33,512 nt of DNA from a candidate division WWE3 bacterium (GTDB taxonomy: Bacteria; Patescibacteriota; WWE3; UBA101185; UBA10185): positions 695,407 to 728,918 of the forward strand of contig WJKK01000001.1 of assembly GCA_014729135.1 (NCBI GenBank), written 5' to 3'. Of the stretch, positions 25,590-33,512 are shown in pieces. Made by a program: the position numbers and the translations under genes. Within the stretch, counting starts at the first letter, position 1. Each line of letters begins with the position of its first letter. The notes under the pieces were generated by a model. It searched no databases. It was given only the letters and a program-made list of their open reading frames with translations, and was not told the DNA's origin.

Positions 25590-28283
25590 CTAGTAACCAC
25601 CAATCCGTACACGCACCGAATCAGAACCCTCTCGCCCCTCATCATCCTCAACCTCCACCTTCAACTCAAGCTCCTTACCAATCTCCCCATAACCAAAATC
25701 AAAATTATACCCATAAGGATCCGACTCATCCTCCGCTATCTTATCTCCATTAACGTAAATCCTAACCTCGTCAACGTCATCCGAAGCAGAAACCTCCGCC
25801 TTTAACCTAAACACCATAGGAATAGTATCGCCATCCTCAATATTTACAATCTCAATAACCGGATCCCTATCCTTAACATCACCATCATCCTCAAACTCCA
25901 AATGCGACTTCATTTGCGGGGGATAATACCGCGAATCCGAGCCATAATTCTCATAAACCCACTGATCCACACTATACTGCCACTCCGGCAAAGCTGCAGT
26001 AATCTTTACAAAAGTCTCCACATCAGTATCGCCATCATCCTTACAGGAGTCATTAGCAATTCGACCATCCTCCTCACAAATCTCGATCTTTTGATACCAG
26101 TTACTTCGCGCTGTTGGCTCTGTTCCTTTAATAAACCACTCCGGACGAGACGGAAAATCCTCAAACGGCAACATCCCTGTAAGCTCATCAACAACAACCT
26201 TCTCTACAGTTTCTGGCACCGAAAACTCCACAGGGTCACGCTCCTCCAAATAAGCAAGCATAAACTCGCGCCAAACAGGAGTAGCCCCCGAAATACCCGA
26301 CGCCACATAAGGATTCATTTTCTCATTGTTGTTATTGCCTACCCAAACGCCGGCCACTATTTCAGGCGTAAAGCCAATAGCATAGTTATCGCGCTTGTCA
26401 TCAGTAGTACCGGTTTTCACTGCCACGTCATGCCCAGAAATGTAAAGCAGACTTCGCGGGCCAAAAACTGCTGACCTAGCACCATCATCCGATAAAATGT
26501 CAGAAATTAAAAAAGCCACCTCTTTGGAGAGCACTTGCCGGCCATTGCTGGAATGCGTATATAAAACATTCCCGTGGGCATCCTTAACCTCCAAAATTGG
26601 AGTCGCCTTGCGATAAACGCCTTCACCGGCAAAAACACCAAAGGCATTAGTCATTTCTAAAAGCTTAGTTTCACCGCCACCTAAAGTTAAAGCTAACCCA
26701 AAACGCTGCCGATCCGTAAACGTGGTAATGCCCATCTCTTCGGCCATATCAATCATGTTGTCAATGCCTGCAATTTTTAGGGCTTTAACGGCGGGAATAT
26801 TTAGCGAATTACCTAAAGACTTTCGCAGGGACATAGGGCCTCTAAAGATTCCATCGTAGTTTTCGGGGACGTACGGCTTAGTAGGGGAGGAGCCTTCAAA
26901 TTTTGTGGGCACGTCCAGTAGAGGGTAAGAAGCGGGATAACCTTGTTCTAAAAGCGTGGCATAGGTTATGGGTTTAATACTGGATCCCGGTTGGCGTGGG
27001 GATAAAGCGACGTTTAGTTGCGGATCAAACTTACAGCCGTCCGGACCGGCAATTCCCGAGGTACACCCTTGTGGTTCTTGGCTTAAGAAAAATCCCTTGG
27101 AGCCCACCATTGCCAAAACCTCGCCAGTTTGCGGATCCATAGCCACCAAAGACCCATTATAAACATTTAAACTATTTTTGGCGGATTCAATTTCTTCGTA
27201 AACTATTTCTTGGGCTTTTTTCTGAAGCTCCAAATCAAGCGAGGTGGTCACCTGCAAACCGCCCTGCTCCACAACGTCCTCACCAAACATGTCGATTAAA
27301 ACGCTTTTTGCCCAAAACACAAAGTGGGGCGCTTCAAAGGAAATAGCAGCTGACTGAAATTGGAGCTCTTCCGACTTGGCGGCTTCATATTCTTCATCGC
27401 TAATATAGTGGCGCTTACCGTCGGAACCGGCCCAACCTTTGTCGTGCATTAAAGAAAGCACGTAGTTTTTGCGCTCTATTCCGGCTTGCGGATTTGCGCC
27501 AAATTGAGAGTAGTAGCTGGGGCTTTGCGGGAGTCCTGCAATGTAGGCTGCTTCTGCTAAACTTAAGTCTTTAGGGTCTTTTGCAAAGTAGGCTTTTGCT
27601 GCGGTATAGACTCCGTAGTTTTGCCCACCATAAGGGGTTTCGTTTAAGTACATTTGGATAATTTGCTCTTTGCCGTATTTGTTTTCTAGTTGAAGCGATA
27701 AAATAAATTCTTTGATTTTTCTTGAAATGGTGCGCTCTTGCGTTAATAAAGTGTTTTTGACGACTTGTTGGGTTAGTGTGGACCCTCCCTGGAGGCCTTC
27801 GCCAAATATGGTGTTTTTAAAGGCTCTTATCATGGCTTTTAAGGAGTAGCCGGAGTGTTGGTAAAAGGTGGCGTCTTCTGTTGCTAGGGTGGCGTTTATG
27901 ACGTGGGGGGAGATTTCGTCGAGGGTTACAAGGATTCGGTTTTTTTCGCCGTAGACTTCAAAGATGGCGTTGCCGTCACGGTCGTAGAGTTTTGTGGAGA
28001 GGTCTTGGCTTCTTTCAAGGAGTGTGTTGGGGTTGGGTAGGAAGCGGGAGTAGTAGGCGAAGGTTCCTATTATGAGGAGGATTCCGGAGATCATACCGAT
28101 TAAGGTTGCGGTTGTTAGGAAGGTTAGGGTTTTGGTGAGTTTTGTGTTTTGGGCGTTGGTTTTTGTGGAGGTTCTGGAGTGCGCTCTAATAATTTTTCCG
28201 GTGAATTTAGCAGCTACTGCTTTTTTATATTCTGAAATTGCTTTTTTTATCGGGTAAAAAGGCGAGTTTCGTTTGATTTTCAT
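25590..28283 (-). CDS. Class A penicillin-binding protein (GT51 transglycosylase + transpeptidase) with C-terminal extension
   Basis: GT51 motifs ATEDATFYQHSGY, GSTLTQQ and RKIKE. Transpeptidase motifs SSIKP, SLN and KTGTT. N-terminal TM anchor and an acidic Ig-like C-terminal tail. Confidence 0.9.
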   Translation of the reverse strand: MKIKRNSPFYPIKKAISEYKKAVAAKFTGKIIRAHSRTSTKTNAQNTKLTKTLTFLTTATLIGMISGILLIIGTFAYYSRFLPNPNTLLERSQDLSTKLYDRDGNAIFEVYGEKNRILVTLDEISPHVINATLATEDATFYQHSGYSLKAMIRAFKNTIFGEGLQGGSTLTQQVVKNTLLTQERTISRKIKEFILSLQLENKYGKEQIIQMYLNETPYGGQNYGVYTAAKAYFAKDPKDLSLAEAAYIAGLPQSPSYYSQFGANPQAGIERKNYVLSLMHDKGWAGSDGKRHYISDEEYEAAKSEELQFQSAAISFEAPHFVFWAKSVLIDMFGEDVVEQGGLQVTTSLDLELQKKAQEIVYEEIESAKNSLNVYNGSLVAMDPQTGEVLAMVGSKGFFLSQEPQGCTSGIAGPDGCKFDPQLNVALSPRQPGSSIKPITYATLLEQGYPASYPLLDVPTKFEGSSPTKPYVPENYDGIFRGPMSLRKSLGNSLNIPAVKALKIAGIDNMIDMAEEMGITTFTDRQRFGLALTLGGGETKLLEMTNAFGVFAGEGVYRKATPILEVKDAHGNVLYTHSSNGRQVLSKEVAFLISDILSDDGARSAVFGPRSLLYISGHDVAVKTGTTDDKRDNYAIGFTPEIVAGVWVGNNNNEKMNPYVASGISGATPVWREFMLAYLEERDPVEFSVPETVEKVVVDELTGMLPFEDFPSRPEWFIKGTEPTARSNWYQKIEICEEDGRIANDSCKDDGDTDVETFVKITAALPEWQYSVDQWVYENYGSDSRYYPPQMKSHLEFEDDGDVKDRDPVIEIVNIEDGDTIPMVFRLKAEVSASDDVDEVRIYVNGDKIAEDESDPYGYNFDFGYGEIGKELELKVEVEDDEGREGSDSVRVRIGGY

Positions 28284-28352
28284 TGTCTGATTATATCACG
28301 CGGGATTTAGGGGACGAGGGTAAAAAGTGGGTTTAAATTTCTAGGTACGACA

Positions 28353-28387
28353 CCCACGAGCGGACTTATACAAAATCCGCCCGTGGG
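28353..28387 (-). terminator. GC-rich 12-bp hairpin downstream of the small-ORF cassette (putative terminator, no U-run)
   Basis: cccacgagcgga (28353-28364) pairs with tccgcccgtggg (28376-28387), 11 of 12 positions, with an 11-nt loop. Confidence 0.4.
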
Positions 28388-28401
28388 CAGGGGAAGGCAC
28401 T

Positions 28402-28614
28402 CTAAGTAAAAATGTAACTGCGAATGCGCTCCCGTGCAGAATCCCAGCAACCAACGTAAGGGTTCTGTGCAGCAGCATCTAGGTCGTCAAGAATGCGAAT
28501 CAGATACGGATGGGCGGTCATCTTCCGAATACGCTTGGAACGATCTTTGACAAACTCTACATCCACCTCTAGCTGAGACAGCTCCGCATACAACTCTTCG
28601 AGTAACTTGAACAT
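28402..28614 (-). CDS. Small helical protein, cassette member D (70 aa)
   Basis: GGAGG lies 8 nt upstream of ATG 28614; the track start is GTG 28623. MFKLLEELYAELSQLE...AHPYLIRILDDLDAAAQNPYVGCWDSARERIRSYI. Confidence 0.55.
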   Translation of the reverse strand: MFKLLEELYAELSQLEVDVEFVKDRSKRIRKMTAHPYLIRILDDLDAAAQNPYVGCWDSARERIRSYIFT

Positions 28615-28627
28615 AGATCCCACCTCC

Positions 28628-28843
28628 CTAATAGTTTCTCTTTAAATACCGATCCAACTCCATGGCACAACGCTGACATGCCTTAACGTTGGATGTATCG
28701 GAGAGCCAAATATTTATGGCATCCAATATCCCTATGAGGTCAGCGTCCCGCGTCTCGTCGCGGATAAAACTTAGATCCTGCGCTCCCGGGGCACGGTACC
28801 CTTGAAGTGCGCGCAAAACACGTCGCAATGTCTCTTTCACCAC
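28628..28843 (-). CDS. Small helical protein, cassette member C (71 aa)
   Basis: GTG start preceded by AGGAGG at a 4-nt spacing. ...RDADLIGILDAINIWLSDTSNVKACQRCAMELDRYL. Confidence 0.55.
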   Translation of the reverse strand: MVKETLRRVLRALQGYRAPGAQDLSFIRDETRDADLIGILDAINIWLSDTSNVKACQRCAMELDRYLKRNY

Positions 28844-28853
28844 AACACCTCCT

Positions 28854-29084
28854 TTACCAACTACCGTCCAACCAACCTACCAACCAATCATGTAGTCCAG
28901 CCCAATCCGCCTCCTGGGGGTTCTTAAGAGACCACTCGAGCGACCCCCAAAAGTTTGCCAAAGACGGATCTCGTGAAAGGGCTCTGGCCTGGAGCATAAG
29001 CTCATTGATCTTTTGGATATCCCGAAATTCGGTCGTATCCAGATAATCAAGAAGCGCCCGGATCACCTGTATAAAAGAAGCCAT
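28854..29084 (-). CDS. Small helical protein, cassette member B (76 aa)
   Basis: The ATG immediately follows the TAG stop of member A, in the same frame. GAGGAGGAG lies just upstream. ...RDPSLANFWGSLEWSLKNPQEADWAGLHDWLVGWL. Confidence 0.55.
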   Translation of the reverse strand: MASFIQVIRALLDYLDTTEFRDIQKINELMLQARALSRDPSLANFWGSLEWSLKNPQEADWAGLHDWLVGWLDGSW

Positions 29085-29282
29085 CTACTCCTCCTCTACG
29101 TAACCGGCGTCTTCAAGCTCTCGGAGAGCATTCAAAATCTCCTCTCTGGAACGCCGTTTAATAATGTTGCAGAGATAATCCAGATCTCCGCTGCCACCAT
29201 TCAACATATGGGTGAGTATTGCATCAGCCAAAGTGCTTAGGGCATCTCGCGGATCCTTTACACCTGTGCCTACCTTATACAC
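29085..29282 (-). CDS. Small protein, cassette member A (65 aa), possibly HTH-like
   Basis: GTG start with AGGAGG 6 nt upstream. KDPRDALSTLADAILTHMLNGGSGDLDYLCNIIK followed by SREEILNALRELEDAGYV, which looks like the end of a winged helix. Confidence 0.55.
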   Translation of the reverse strand: MYKVGTGVKDPRDALSTLADAILTHMLNGGSGDLDYLCNIIKRRSREEILNALRELEDAGYVEEE

Positions 29283-29359
29283 ACAGCACCTCCTCTAGGT
29301 AAGATTGTCAACGCTCGTAGTATACCCCATAGCGACTCCAAAAACAAAAAACTCCCTTG

Positions 29360-29368
29360 TGCTAAAAT
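29360..29368 (+). promoter_or_regulatory. Extended -10 promoter (TGcTAAAAT), 6 nt before the tyrS ATG
   Basis: tgctaaaat at 29360-29368 and ATG at 29375. Confidence 0.45.
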
Positions 29369-29374
29369 CAAACC

Positions 29375-30565
29375 ATGGCAGTTAACACAGACCCGCGAAA
29401 AATCGATGAGATCCTCACTAGAGGAGTGCACGAAATCTTCACCAAAGAGGACCTGCGTGAAAGACTCCTTAGTGGAAAGCAACTACACCTAAAGCTAGGC
29501 ACCGACGTTACAGGCCCCCGCCTCCATTTAGGACACGCCGTAGTCCACCGCAAAATTCGCGACTTCCAAGAACTTGGCCACAAAGTCACTCTGGTGATTG
29601 GTGATTACACAACTTTGGTAGGCGACCACTCCGACAAAGTAGACATGCGCGCTGAAATCACTCCCGAGGAAATCAAAAAGAATGAGGAAACCTACAAGGA
29701 ACAGTTTTTTAAGACCGTCAAAAAGGAGCAAACTGAAATTAAGCACAACTCCGACTGGCTTGCTGACCTGCAACTTTTGGACGTTATTAATCTGACAAAA
29801 CAGTTCACAATTGCGCAAATGCTGGATCGCGAAACTTTTAAGCTTAGATACGAGCAAAACAAGCCTATCGGGCTAGATGAGTTTTTGTATCCGCTAATGC
29901 AGGGCTATGATTCGGTGGCGCTAAAATGCGACGTTGAGTTTGGCGGTACAGATCAGACTTTTAATTTGTTGGCGGGAAGAAAGTTGATGGAGGTGTTTGA
30001 TCAAAAACCTCAATGCGCTTTTGTTATGAGGCTTTTAACAGGAGCGGATGGGCGACCTATGGGAAAGAGTCTTAAGAATTTTATTCCTCTTACTGACAAT
30101 GCTAATGACATGTATGGAAAAGTTATGGCAGTTGTGGATGAGGTGATTTTTGAATATTTTGAGCTGGTGACACGTGTTCCTATGGAGGAGATTAGCAAAA
30201 TGCAGGCCGCTGTTGAGACGGGGGAAAATCCTATGAAGTTTAAGAAGCGCCTGGCTAGAGAGATTGTTACTTTTTATCATTCTAAGGAGGCGGCGCAAAA
30301 GGCGGAGGAGTTTTTTGAGAGCACGGTTCAAGGGGAAGAGCTTCCGGAGGAGATGCCTGAAATTGAAGTTGAGGAGGACGTAGCTTTGTATGTGAATGCC
30401 TCTAAGGTAGCACCAAAAATGTCCAAGTCGCAGGTGCGTAGAATCATTAAGCAGGGTGGTTTTGAGGTGAATGGCGAGAAAATGACGGATCCTTTGGCGG
30501 AGGTTACTTTGAAATCGGGGGATGTTTTAAAGCTTGGCAAGCGCCGTTATGGGAGGGTTAAATAG
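29375..30565 (+). CDS. tyrS: Tyrosine--tRNA ligase with C-terminal S4-like domain
   Basis: HIGH-type HLGH, KMSKS-type PMGKS, GTDQ, and a C-terminal SKSQVRRIIKQGGFEVNGEK S4 fold. Confidence 0.85.
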   Translation: MAVNTDPRKIDEILTRGVHEIFTKEDLRERLLSGKQLHLKLGTDVTGPRLHLGHAVVHRKIRDFQELGHKVTLVIGDYTTLVGDHSDKVDMRAEITPEEIKKNEETYKEQFFKTVKKEQTEIKHNSDWLADLQLLDVINLTKQFTIAQMLDRETFKLRYEQNKPIGLDEFLYPLMQGYDSVALKCDVEFGGTDQTFNLLAGRKLMEVFDQKPQCAFVMRLLTGADGRPMGKSLKNFIPLTDNANDMYGKVMAVVDEVIFEYFELVTRVPMEEISKMQAAVETGENPMKFKKRLAREIVTFYHSKEAAQKAEEFFESTVQGEELPEEMPEIEVEEDVALYVNASKVAPKMSKSQVRRIIKQGGFEVNGEKMTDPLAEVTLKSGDVLKLGKRRYGRVK

Positions 30566-30577
30566 GGATTTTAGACT

Positions 30578-30898
30578 ATGAAGTTTTTGAATTCTTTAAA
30601 GGAGGCTCTAAAAGGAGCAAAGAAAAAGAAGAGGTATTGCTTAATTTCTAAGTGGGGAAAGACGTTGGGAAAACTCCATAGGGAGAAGTGTTTTTTTGTG
30701 AAGTTACAGGAGCAGTTTAAAAAGCGCCGTAAAAAGAAGAAGGCTAAGCATAATTTTAGGAAGATTTTTAAGAGTATTCGAAAGGGTGTGCGTAAGTTTT
30801 TTAAGACGTTGTTTAAAAAGGAGACGCTGGCAAAGATTTTGATTGTTGTGGCTACGGTGTCTATGCTCCTTCCGTTGATTCTGCCGTTTTTGGGCTAA
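30578..30898 (+). CDS. Highly basic tail-anchored small membrane protein, hypothetical
   Basis: 106 aa. The N-terminal approximately 80 aa are extremely K/R-rich (KKKKRY, KKRRKKKKAKH). There is a single C-terminal TM (ILIVVATVSMLLPLILPFLG). Confidence 0.5.
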   Translation: MKFLNSLKEALKGAKKKKRYCLISKWGKTLGKLHREKCFFVKLQEQFKKRRKKKKAKHNFRKIFKSIRKGVRKFFKTLFKKETLAKILIVVATVSMLLPLILPFLG

Positions 30899-30984
30899 TT
30901 TACCTTTACTTTCGAAATAAAAATGTTAATCTTCCCTCAGGTGATTGACCAGAGTACATAGTTAAGGTGGAAAAAGGAGGTCTT

Positions 30985-31182
30985 ATGAAAAGCGTGGATT
31001 TGGCATATGCGTTAAACGCAGCAATGTGCACCGAGGAAGGCCCAAATCCCTCACAAATCAAATGCCTCAAGGCTCAAGCCGACGAAGGAACAACCCTTCA
31101 TGAATTTGCACTGGCATGCGAGAGAAGGGATTATAACGAGGCTTGTCGCCTTTTCTCGGAGTGGGCCCGTTGTTCAGCATGA
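30985..31182 (+). CDS. Small Cys-rich helical protein (65 aa), cassette-like member E
   Basis: AGGAGG lies 5 nt before ATG 30985; the track start is GTG 30967. MKSVDLAYALNAAMCTEEGPNPSQIKCLKAQ... Composition is GC-richer. Confidence 0.5.
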   Translation: MKSVDLAYALNAAMCTEEGPNPSQIKCLKAQADEGTTLHEFALACERRDYNEACRLFSEWARCSA

Positions 31183-31184
31183 AA

Positions 31185-31228
31185 TTTTCCGCAGGCGGAA
31201 GCCGTTAAGAAGTGCCGCCTGTGGAAAA
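31185..31228 (+). terminator. 14-bp hairpin after the small ORF (putative terminator, no U-run)
   Basis: ttttccgcaggcgg (31185-31198) pairs with ccgcctgtggaaaa (31215-31228), including one G-U pair, with a 16-nt loop. Confidence 0.4.
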
Positions 31229-31290
31229 CTCCCCCATAAATACACAATACTATCCCTCCCGCATCGCTTTAAACACCACCCACGACAAAG

Positions 31291-31296
31291 TATAAT
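31291..31296 (+). promoter_or_regulatory. Consensus -10 (TATAAT), 7 nt before the recG ATG
   Basis: tataat at 31291-31296 and ATG at 31304. No SD. Confidence 0.4.
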
Positions 31297-31303
31297 ACTC
31301 CAG

Positions 31304-33355
31304 ATGAAACTTGATGATAAAGTTACAAAAGTACCTCAAGTAGGCCCAAAATCCAAAGAAAAACTTGCAAACCTAAAAATTGAAACCATAAAAGACCTCC
31401 TTTATCACTTTCCCTTTCGCTACGAGGACCGCTCAAAAATAGAAAACATCCAAAACGTCCTTAAAAGTCATCAAAATGGCAAAGACACGCAAAATCCCGT
31501 TACTATAAAGGCAAAACTCACCAAAATTAAAAACATTTACACAAAAAATTGCAAGCGCCTTACAAGGGCAGCAGCTCAAGACGAAACCGGCGAAATTCAA
31601 CTTATCTGGTTTAATATGCACTATTTAAAGCGGTCGCTTAGAGTAGGGGAGACCTATTTGATTAGCGGGAAGGTTGGCACTTTTAGTGGGAAAACTTCGC
31701 TGATTGTGCCTCAAATGGAAAAGGAGCAGGTGACAAACCTACATATTGGACGTATTGTCCCTATTTATCATCAAACGGAAGGTATTAGCTCACGTTGGCT
31801 GCGTTCCAGGATTAACGACGTCTTGGCGGGGGTTGAGGAGGAAAAATTTGGTGGGCTTGTTGAGGAGTTTTTGCCGGAGAAATTGCTAGAAAAGTATGCG
31901 CATTTGGTTTTAGGCGAGGCTTTAAAGCAGATTCACTTTCCGGATGATTTTGATTTGCTGGAAAAGGCGCGGGCTCGGCTGGGTTATAACGAGCTTTTTC
32001 ATGAGCTTGTGCGTGTGGAAAAGGTTAAGCAAAAGTGGGAGCTGCAGCATAATCCGGTGGAGATTGACTTTGATGAGGGGATTTTGGAGGATTTTGTGGA
32101 GAAGCTGCCTTTTAGGCTTACTAATGAGCAGATAGTGGCTGTGGAGGAGATTCTGGAGGACTTTAGGGAGGGGGCAGCGGGGCTTCCAATGAATCGATTG
32201 CTGGAGGGGGATGTGGGGACAGGCAAGACGGTGGTGGCTATTGTGGCGGCGCTTGCTAACTTGGAGTCAGGACGAAATGTTTTGTATATGGCTCCTACGG
32301 AGATTCTGGCCCGGCAGCACTTTGCAACGTTTGCTAAATTCCTACCTGAGAAGTGGAGACCGTACCTACAGCTCGTAACAGGGGACAGTCCTCGCAGAGG
32401 ACTGTCCCCTGAGAGGACTGTCCTTTCAAAGGACAGTCCCCTCATCACTATAGGCACGCACGCGCTACTTTACAAAAAGCAGAAATACAAAAACGTAGGG
32501 CTTGTAATCATCGACGAACAGCACCGCTTTGGCGTAGAACAACGAGAAAAACTCCTTAGTTACAACAGCGACAAAACCACTCCACATCTTCTAACCATGA
32601 CCGCAACACCCATTCCAAGAACGTTGGCGCTTACCTTGTATGGCGACCTGGAAATTAGCACGCTAACCGAAAAACCCCGCAAAGAAGCGAAAATCATCAC
32701 CAAAGTTGTGCCTAACTCCAAGCGAAAAGAAATCTTCAAGTGGATAGCAGCCAAAAACGAGCCCACCTTCATAGTTTGCCCTTTTGTAGAGGAAAGCACA
32801 CATCCGGCGTTCGCTGACGTGAAAGCAGCTACAACCGAATATGAAACCCTTAAAAAAGGCGCACTTAAAGGCAAGAAAGTAGGCGTTTTGCATGGGCAGC
32901 TTTCCTCACAAGAAAAGCAAAAAGTGGTGGAAAAGTTTGAAAAAGGCAAGTTGGACGTTTTGGTCTCCACGCCGGTCATAGAGGTGGGCATAGACATTCC
33001 CGATGCAACTGTTATGGTTATTGAAAGTGCTGAAAGGTTTGGGTTGGCTTCGCTTCATCAGTTGAGGGGGCGTGTAGGGCGTGGCAAAAAAGATGGTTAT
33101 TGTTTTGTTTTTGCCAGTAGTGAGGAAAAGGAGCGGGGGGAGTCTAATGCTATTAAGCGTTTGAAGAATTTGGAGAAGTTTGAGGATGGTTTGAGTTTGG
33201 CGGAGATTGATTTGAAGATGCGTGGGCCGGGGGAGATTTATGGAGTGGAGCAGCATGGGTTTAAGAATTTTAAGATTGCAGATTTGAGCGATATTAACTT
33301 GATTGAAAATGTGAAAAAGGATGTTAAGATGTACCTCGAAAGTTTTCAAGGATGA
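31304..33355 (+). CDS. recG: ATP-dependent DNA helicase RecG
   Basis: The start was moved from the track's 31100 to Met 31304 (MKLDDKVTKVPQVGPKSKEKL..LYHFPFRYEDRS). Wedge domain, GDVGTGKT, MAPTEILARQH, DEQHRFG, TATPIPRT and QLRGRVGRG are all present. Confidence 0.9.
   Translation: MKLDDKVTKVPQVGPKSKEKLANLKIETIKDLLYHFPFRYEDRSKIENIQNVLKSHQNGKDTQNPVTIKAKLTKIKNIYTKNCKRLTRAAAQDETGEIQLIWFNMHYLKRSLRVGETYLISGKVGTFSGKTSLIVPQMEKEQVTNLHIGRIVPIYHQTEGISSRWLRSRINDVLAGVEEEKFGGLVEEFLPEKLLEKYAHLVLGEALKQIHFPDDFDLLEKARARLGYNELFHELVRVEKVKQKWELQHNPVEIDFDEGILEDFVEKLPFRLTNEQIVAVEEILEDFREGAAGLPMNRLLEGDVGTGKTVVAIVAALANLESGRNVLYMAPTEILARQHFATFAKFLPEKWRPYLQLVTGDSPRRGLSPERTVLSKDSPLITIGTHALLYKKQKYKNVGLVIIDEQHRFGVEQREKLLSYNSDKTTPHLLTMTATPIPRTLALTLYGDLEISTLTEKPRKEAKIITKVVPNSKRKEIFKWIAAKNEPTFIVCPFVEESTHPAFADVKAATTEYETLKKGALKGKKVGVLHGQLSSQEKQKVVEKFEKGKLDVLVSTPVIEVGIDIPDATVMVIESAERFGLASLHQLRGRVGRGKKDGYCFVFASSEEKERGESNAIKRLKNLEKFEDGLSLAEIDLKMRGPGEIYGVEQHGFKNFKIADLSDINLIENVKKDVKMYLESFQG
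32381..32443. repeat. In-frame GC-rich double palindrome inside recG
   Basis: The first palindrome is ggggacagtcctc gca gaggactgtcccc, a 13-bp perfect stem. The second is gaggactgtcc tttcaaa ggacagtcccctc. Together they encode GDSPRRGLSPERTVLSKDSPL. Confidence 0.85.
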
Positions 33356-33489
33356 TCCTTAGTTAAGCAGGTGCTTTTCCTTTTTATAGAAGGACAGAAG
33401 TGGGATTAGACCAAGGATAATCCTTGAAAAGCGTGCCTGAATCACTTTAACGAAAAGACGTAAGAGGTATTTACACAAGGATAATCCTT
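33347..33489. repeat. Three copies of the 14-bp palindrome CAAGGAT(A/G)ATCCTT at 64-65 bp spacing
   Basis: Copies lie at 33347-33360 (it contains the recG stop), 33412-33425 and 33476-33489. Each is followed by an A-rich tract. The series reaches the window edge. Confidence 0.8.
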
Positions 33490-33512
33490 AAAAACGAGAA
33501 CATGTTAAGAAT

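Follow-up and report, generated by a model that had tools for sequence, protein, structure and literature searches.

An orphan cassette of four small-protein genes at the PBP/tyrS junction of a candidate division WWE3 bacterium

A stretch of 33,512 nucleotides from a candidate division WWE3 bacterium (assembly GCA_014729135.1, contig WJKK01000001.1, positions 695,407 to 728,918 of the forward strand), here called the window, contains four tiled open reading frames (ORFs) on the minus strand between the gene for a class A penicillin-binding protein (PBP) and tyrS. These ORFs, designated A to D, very probably form an orphan operon that has been inserted at a hot spot. An earlier reading of the same DNA, made without database searches and called here the sequence-only reading, had described them as a paralogous cassette of helical hairpins, possibly acquired horizontally. 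All positions below follow the numbering of the window.

Genomes of the candidate phyla radiation (CPR)/Patescibacteria are small and streamlined, yet rich in orphan small proteins of obscure origin and role. The cassette is a clean example of this phenomenon: its borders are well defined and lie in a promoter junction that is conserved, its translation signals are strong, one product is confidently folded in models, and its site is reused in relatives. It is not a new system, since CPR bacteria often carry operons of orphan small proteins, and public databases already list A, C, and D as unnamed proteins. The analysis adds evidence for a paralogous relationship between B and D, both predicted four-helix bundles, and the recognition of the PBP/tyrS junction as an apparently recurrent insertion site in WWE3.

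Borders and genes of the cassette

Many Patescibacteria share a divergent PBP/tyrS pair with recG next in line, and at most loci the gap between the two divergent genes is only about 0 to 150 bp. The short junctions of three relatives (L005, L082, and L007) contain little beyond two back-to-back extended -10 boxes, located 6 to 9 nt from the start codons. These boxes lie 4 to 60 nt apart in the insert-free relatives L082 and L005, both of which also contain the extended -10 motif of the PBP gene, and tyrS-type motifs (TGCTATAAT and TGATATACT) are present in L007 and L005. In the window, both boxes are retained (Table 1) with approximately 1.05 kb between them. This retention shows, by sequence comparison, that the cassette was inserted relative to the ancestral arrangement, splitting a pair of back-to-back promoters that are predicted to be leaderless.

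The junction is also occupied in L002, L003, L006, L089, L036, L028, L161, L164, and L165, by inserts that are unrelated. Among these are a gene of the glyoxalase family (L036), a PAP2 gene together with unknown genes (L028), a gene of 170 amino acids (aa) in L165, and ORFs without a family in L003 and L006. None of the inserts in relatives resembles either A to D or the insert in the window in DNA and protein comparisons. Because unrelated cargo is found at the same junction in several relatives, the PBP/tyrS junction appears to behave as a permissive, recurrent insertion hot spot in WWE3.

Within the insert, the layout of the four ORFs agreed with the sequence-only reading in coordinates, ribosome-binding sites, and spacing. 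A and B share one frame, and the TAG stop codon of A abuts the ATG of B (a gap of 0), while B and C are separated by 10 nt and C and D by 4 or 13 nt, depending on whether D begins at GTG or ATG. A GGAGG Shine-Dalgarno (SD) sequence lies 4 to 8 nt ahead of each of the four starts. The SDs of the downstream cistrons are at most 10 nt from the preceding stop codon, and that of B lies within the last codons of A, being formed by its terminal GAG GAG GAG. This layout is compatible with translational coupling. D most likely starts at ATG 28614, because the alternative GTG overlaps the SD itself; the 70-aa form that begins at this ATG is also the form listed in NCBI nr.

Several lines of evidence bear on whether the ORFs are genes. 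When the 1,091-nt intergenic stretch was shuffled 5,000 times with dinucleotides preserved, 0.08% of the shuffles had a tiled set of four or more ORFs that were each 60 aa or longer, and about 0.1% had ORFs tiling 867 nt or more (P of about 0.001). The insert has five GGAGG on its minus strand, four of them directly before the starts of A to D, and none on its plus strand. With a codon log-odds model built from 25 long ORFs in the window, the frame of each ORF was the best of the six (A, +0.36; B, +0.07; C, +0.14; D, +0.23 bits/codon), compared with +0.17 to +0.54 bits/codon for host genes. The plus-strand shadow ORFs at 28807 to 29046 and 29013 to 29240, which had been named as possible real genes, scored negative. 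A, C, and D were called as genes independently and are listed in NCBI nr, each as a singleton cluster and all from a single contig. B is absent from a public collection of 15 billion proteins, though A, C, and D are present, and appears to have been omitted from the public annotation of the source contig; the shadow ORFs are absent as well. By codon score alone B is the least certain gene, but in its favor stand a perfect SD with an ATG and its resemblance to D. Given the ORF tiling, SD placement, frame-specific codon scores, and confident predicted fold of D, we conclude that A to D are almost certainly genuine protein-coding genes and that the shadow ORFs are not.

It is accordingly very unlikely that the ORFs are nonfunctional, whether as chance or decaying frames in a remnant or noncoding insert or as parts of a structured RNA. 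Such an origin would account for the lack of conservation evidence and for the low coding score of B and its omission from public annotation. It is difficult to reconcile with the improbable tiling, with four well-spaced SDs found on the coding strand only, with a frame-specific codon signal in all four ORFs, or with the mean predicted local distance difference test score (pLDDT) of 88.7 for D. Nor did the cassette region match any Rfam family at the gathering threshold; at an E value of up to 10, only two chance-level matches appeared, at the edge of the PBP gene. A structured RNA, such as a T-box leader or a member of another Rfam family, was rejected on this basis. Two further candidates were also discarded. 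A pseudogene of one longer, frameshifted protein does not fit cistrons that each have their own SD and start codon, and the concatenate of A to D has no homolog. Fusion of A and B by read-through of the TAG was dismissed because TAG is a normal stop codon here, used by 10 of 28 genes in the window.

The presence of a GC-rich hairpin closing the cassette was corroborated by folding. Its predicted stability is -32.2 kcal/mol (z = -5.7), none of 200 shuffles was equally stable, and a terminator scan also picked up an inner 5-bp stem at 28377 to 28390. The hairpin is predicted to be a terminator or insulator, one without a clear U tract.

Table 1. Features of the cassette and its borders, in window coordinates
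Feature	Position	Strand	Basis or remark
Inserted DNA, about 1.05 kb	28299..29359		Between the -10 boxes of the putatively leaderless PBP and tyrS promoters
Possible -10 box TATACT, candidate cassette promoter	29319..29324	minus	Read from the sequence; putative
Gene A, 65 aa, GTG start	29085..29282	minus	ORF with GAGGAGG 6 nt upstream
Gene B, 76 aa, ATG start	28854..29084	minus	ORF with GGAGG at 29090-29094
Gene C, 71 aa, GTG start (70 aa from second GTG)	28628..28843	minus	ORF with AAGGAGG 4-7 nt upstream
Gene D, 70 aa from ATG 28614	28402..28614	minus	ORF with GGAGG 8 nt upstream of the ATG
Gene D alternative, 73 aa from GTG 28623	28402..28623	minus	GTG overlaps the SD
GC-rich hairpin, 16 bp, 13 nt past the stop codon of D	28352..28388	minus	Folding
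Left edge of the insert: PBP extended -10, TGATATAAT	28290..28298	minus	6 nt before the ATG, leaderless
Right edge of the insert: tyrS extended -10, TGCTAAAAT	29360..29368	plus	6 nt before the ATG, leaderless
Class A PBP gene (transglycosylase and transpeptidase)	25590-28283	minus	Flanking gene
tyrS	29375-30565	plus	Flanking gene

Relationship and predicted folds of the four proteins

The sequence-only reading had aligned B, C, and D over a common core and had placed the same core at the N terminus of A. For B and D, the similarity extends over the full length of the proteins (BLASTP E = 6e-4). Their local alignment score of 41 compares with 23.0 +/- 4.4 in shuffles (z = 4.1, p = 0.0025), and the ungapped 35-residue core proposed earlier for the pair reached a z of approximately 5. 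A rotation null for this alignment was dropped as uninformative, since rotation leaves most of the alignment in register. In the aligned register, the limits of the predicted helices of B and D also agree. B and D are probably divergent paralogs, judging from both the sequence similarity and this agreement. No significant pairwise similarity was detected for B and C, for C and D, or for any pair that includes A. Against a profile of B and D, C aligned by hhalign in exactly the register of the original core, but with a P of 0.037 and a probability of 1.4%, so that its membership is not statistically established. A had no similarity to the same profile and does not carry the core (z of about 0).

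Structural models gave a similar picture. AlphaFold2, run on the concatenated proteins, predicted four helices each in B, C, and D and three in A. At the alignment-derived offsets of B = D+4 and C = D-2, the third and fourth helices of the three proteins fall together (helix 4 of C within 3 residues), a shared all-alpha layout that is weak evidence by itself, and a short motif, R/A-D/H-x-x-L-I/A-x-I/F-L/W, is common to C and the B/D pair. C therefore appears to have the same architecture as B and D, with a homology that is not demonstrable from the sequences, and A is a separate protein, unrelated to the other three. Modeled alone from its single sequence, with no alignment, D formed an up-down four-helix bundle (pLDDT of 88.7; predicted TM score of 0.74). 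The predicted fold of D, and by model also of B and C, is thus a four-helix bundle and not the two-helix hairpin proposed earlier.

The four proteins differ in other respects. The predicted helices of A span residues 11 to 28, 35 to 41, and 46 to 58, with no strands and a low pLDDT of 37 to 61 by 10-residue block; the protein is acidic, with a pI of 4.7 and a net charge of approximately -5. B is also acidic and contains six Trp residues; where its helix 3 turns into helix 4 it has a W-A-G that is absent from C and D. C is basic (pI 8.7). All four are hydrophilic, with negative grand average of hydropathy (GRAVY) values, and have neither a signal peptide nor a membrane segment in their sequences. 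The earlier suggestion of a secreted family finds no support in these properties.

The small, helical, clustered nature of the proteins and the W-A-G of B recall the WXG100/ESAT-6 group, and B, C, and D might be secreted hairpins of that type or the cassette might be a toxin-antitoxin module. Either reading is highly improbable. The W-x-G turn occurs in B only, and B, C, and D have 70 to 76 aa compared with about 100 in WXG100 proteins. A to D have no match to the WXG100 family PF06013 in Pfam at an E value of up to 10, no toxin-antitoxin profile was matched in Pfam or NCBIfam, and the models have four helices. The lack of signal peptides and membrane segments adds to these points, and the window contains no secretion genes.

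The statement that the proteins belong to no recognizable family stood up to searches of Pfam, PHROGs, PADLOC, NCBIfam, and, with phmmer, protein collections, none of which gave a significant match. Word-indexed queries of 5.8 billion proteins, one using B by itself and one using A, C, and D concatenated, recovered only the window's own proteins, and a full phmmer search of 1.84 billion representatives with concatenated A to D returned self matches only. Scans of viral and metagenome contigs with the cassette peptides and tblastn searches of phage and plasmid collections found nothing, and exact look-ups of encoding contigs added nothing beyond the window's own proteins. PADLOC yielded no family for A to D at an E value of up to 10, and NCBIfam yielded only two chance-level matches (E = 0.03 and 0.19), far under the cutoffs. 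The closest TyrS proteins in species-representative genomes, JGI metagenomes, and the 5.8 billion predicted proteins are 68 to 71% identical to that of the window.

The only matches in Pfam and PHROGs were weak ones of A to helix-turn-helix (HTH) or regulator profiles. A scored 15.8 bits against HTH_36 (cutoff, 25; E = 0.012) and 14.2 bits against CodY-HTH (cutoff, 27; E = 0.035), both over residues 28 to 63, and matched phrog_2440, annotated as a transcriptional regulator, over residues 8 to 64 (E = 0.0046). These profiles overlap mostly in the C-terminal two-thirds of A. In comparison with winged-helix and tri-helical HTH domains, residues 28 to 64 of A match the part comprising helix 2 and the recognition helix. 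A differs from these domains in ending where the wing would start, in being acidic, and in its subthreshold scores. The best match of A in the sequence search of the PDB, to annexin repeats (E = 0.29), was taken as chance, and Pfam Annexin gave no match; the alignment covers residues 18 to 56 of A (LNGGSGDLDYLCNIIKRRSREEIL versus LKGAGTDEKVLTEIIASRTPEEL). A match of the B/D profile to SHQ1 in the same type of search (E = 0.026) was likewise taken as chance.

A Foldseek search with D against PDB and BFVD returned generic four-helix bundles, and the same program run on the concatenated model of A to D was set aside as meaningless. The top matches of D were HPt domains, with query-normalized TM scores of 0.58 to 0.64 but E values of about 1 and identities of 13 to 18%. 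D has no match to Pfam Hpt, and its single His, with which helix 3 opens, is not part of an HxxKG-type phospho-acceptor motif. As a predicted small four-helix bundle, D is also like the colicin and pyocin immunity proteins Im7 and Im9 and cytochrome b562-like proteins. For colicin and pyocin immunity proteins there was no Pfam or NCBIfam match, none was among the top 50 Foldseek matches of D, and no toxin gene is adjacent.

Origin and possible roles of the cassette

On balance, and with some reservation, we favor the following account as a whole: an inserted orphan operon of the mobile-element type that encodes a small regulator and three protein-binding helical bundles. A promoter of its own upstream of A would drive the operon, possibly with the TATACT listed in Table 1, and ribosomes moving from cistron to cistron would make the four proteins in roughly equal amounts, while the hairpin would block read-through into the PBP gene. 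A would be a small DNA-binding regulator of the operon. B, C, and D may be soluble cytoplasmic proteins that bind other proteins, or each other, stoichiometrically, in a role like that of small phage or plasmid accessory genes for immunity, anti-defense, or host modulation. The cassette would then most likely be a fragment of a mobile element from an unsampled CPR virome or plasmidome. Taken singly, each specific functional reading of the cassette is unlikely.

A number of observations weigh against this account. The synonymous codon usage of the cassette is indistinguishable from that of PBP, tyrS, and recG (p = 0.19), which undermines the compositional case that had been made for horizontal acquisition, and no integrase, repeat border, or other mobile-element hallmark was found. 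A consensus scan gave no canonical -35/-10 pair for the cassette promoter. Without a homolog of A to D in any searched collection, there is neither evidence of conservation or selection nor a function that could be taken from a family. Every HTH match of A falls below its curated cutoff, and an acidic protein is unusual for a DNA binder. The Foldseek matches of D are generic, with uncharacterized phage proteins appearing only at E values of at least 0.5. Finally, B combines the weakest coding score (+0.07) with its absence from public annotation.

The composition of the insert is elevated in GC, as the sequence-only reading had noted, and its value of 0.489 is in the top 1% of 1,091-nt windows here. 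Compared with the adjacent PBP, tyrS, and recG genes, however, the excess is just 0.03 to 0.04. Codon usage follows the same pattern. The cassette differs from the window genes overall (p = 6e-7), but GC at third codon positions is 0.47 to 0.54 throughout 25590 to 33512, which holds PBP, the cassette, tyrS, and recG, compared with a mean of 0.38 for the window's listed genes. Because these last 8 kb are rich in third-position GC as a whole, the cassette is not distinct from its immediate neighbors. Its match to their codon usage fits long residence, native origin, and acquisition equally well. The only compositional trait that sets the cassette apart from its neighbors is an inverted ratio of Arg to Lys (R, 8.9%, and K, 4.3%, versus R, 3.8 to 5.7%, and K, 6.3 to 10%). 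Mobile-element borders were considered and rejected, since direct and inverted repeats of 10 to 11 nt at the edges occur at chance expectation. A horizontal origin of the insert is plausible but unproven.

A native, lineage-specific small-protein operon, arisen de novo or by extreme divergence and possibly with a role in the cell envelope, is unlikely but deserves serious consideration. The envelope role is suggested by the location of the cassette, which shares the strand of the PBP gene and lies immediately upstream of it. Codon usage equal to that of the flanking core genes is what a native operon would have, the same can be said of the missing homologs and mobile-element hallmarks, and other WWE3 genomes keep small-gene arrays of their own at the junction. 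Those arrays are unrelated, however, and lie on the opposite strand. The strong hairpin and the separate, putatively leaderless PBP promoter would uncouple the cassette from the PBP gene, and the Arg/Lys ratio is unlike that of host genes. Ordered four-helix bundles with an internal paralogous pair are also less expected of very young genes.

The inserted-operon account draws on the likeness of the cassette to phage and plasmid accessory operons (moron, early-gene, and acr-aca loci). Shared features are the coupled ORFs of 65 to 76 aa with strong SDs, a putative HTH protein, mostly acidic orphan products, and a variable site. The cassette differs from these operons in having no mobile-element context, integrase, or att repeats and in having its HTH gene first, and it has no match in phage collections, viral contigs, or PHROGs except the weak regulator match of A. 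A more specific version, in which B, C, and D represent an unseen family of four-helix bundles of about 70 aa that is carried by an unsampled lineage of CPR phages or plasmids and supplies inhibitors for anti-defense, immunity, or host takeover under a miniature HTH repressor, or else are very young genes born in place at a permissive promoter junction, is speculative and rather unlikely.

Stricter still is the reading of the cassette as an immunity or anti-defense array, in which A would be a repressor of the Aca type and B, C, and D would inhibit a defense system or toxin. A tight operon of small, mostly acidic orphans with paralogs and a putative HTH gene would suit such an array, and acr-aca loci and orphan immunity arrays are built in a similar way. 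We nevertheless consider it distinctly unlikely. Neither PADLOC nor PHROGs nor Pfam gave a match to a known defense, Acr/Aca, or immunity family, and only housekeeping genes are nearby, with no toxin gene or defense system. The HTH gene is first in the cassette, while the usual acr-aca order puts it last.

If the proteins are anti-defense or immunity factors, or if the genes were born in place, the cassette would offer a handle on gene acquisition and gene testing in episymbionts with tiny genomes. At present the gain is chiefly one of annotation, namely, the addition of gene B and the start of D at ATG, together with the record of the hot spot.

Other junction inserts and neighboring genes

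Several inserts at the PBP/tyrS junction of relatives have features of their own. Those of L006 (4967-5973) and L003 (5026-5967) are about 1 kb long, with GC contents of 0.44 and 0.50 against genome backgrounds of 0.38 and 0.44, respectively. They have no Rfam match at the gathering threshold, their scanned ORFs have no Pfam match, and they are dissimilar to each other and to the window. L004 (5803-5968) and L084 (407-586) contain an element of about 166 bp with inverted repeats of 26 to 33 nt (TAGGTTTCACCCAGCTCCACC...), which may be a large hairpin or a miniature element of the inverted-repeat kind. A family of proteins of about 107 to 128 aa, whose genes share the strand of tyrS and are repeated in tandem up to three times, occurs in L161 (3709-4916), L164 (4559-4906), L002 (5541-5891), and L089 (4601-4924). 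Its members share the motif GG..SGVT[IV][RK]..GI.L..SGY.L, with pairwise BLASTP E values of 1e-22 to 1e-3; the family had no Pfam match where scanned (L002 and L089) and is absent from the window.

The initiation signals of the cassette contrast with those of its surroundings, in line with the sequence-only reading. Many neighbors are leaderless or lack an SD, and operon-internal genes use AAGGAGG. Many first genes in the genome lack an SD and have an extended -10 (TGnTAnAAT) only 6 to 9 nt ahead of the start codon, a combination that points to leaderless mRNAs. Examples are the boxes at 28290-28298 (minus strand) and 29360-29368 (plus strand) and the regions upstream of 5315, 7084, and 17451.

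The surrounding genes of the window are thrS, infC, rplT, pheS, pheT, PBP, tyrS, and recG. Between tyrS and recG are a Lys-rich ORF of 106 aa with a hydrophobic tail (30578-30898) and an ORF of 71 aa (30967-31182). The alignments with RecG proteins of relatives begin only at residue 52 to 69 of the 751-aa recG ORF, which suggests that recG may begin downstream of 31100.

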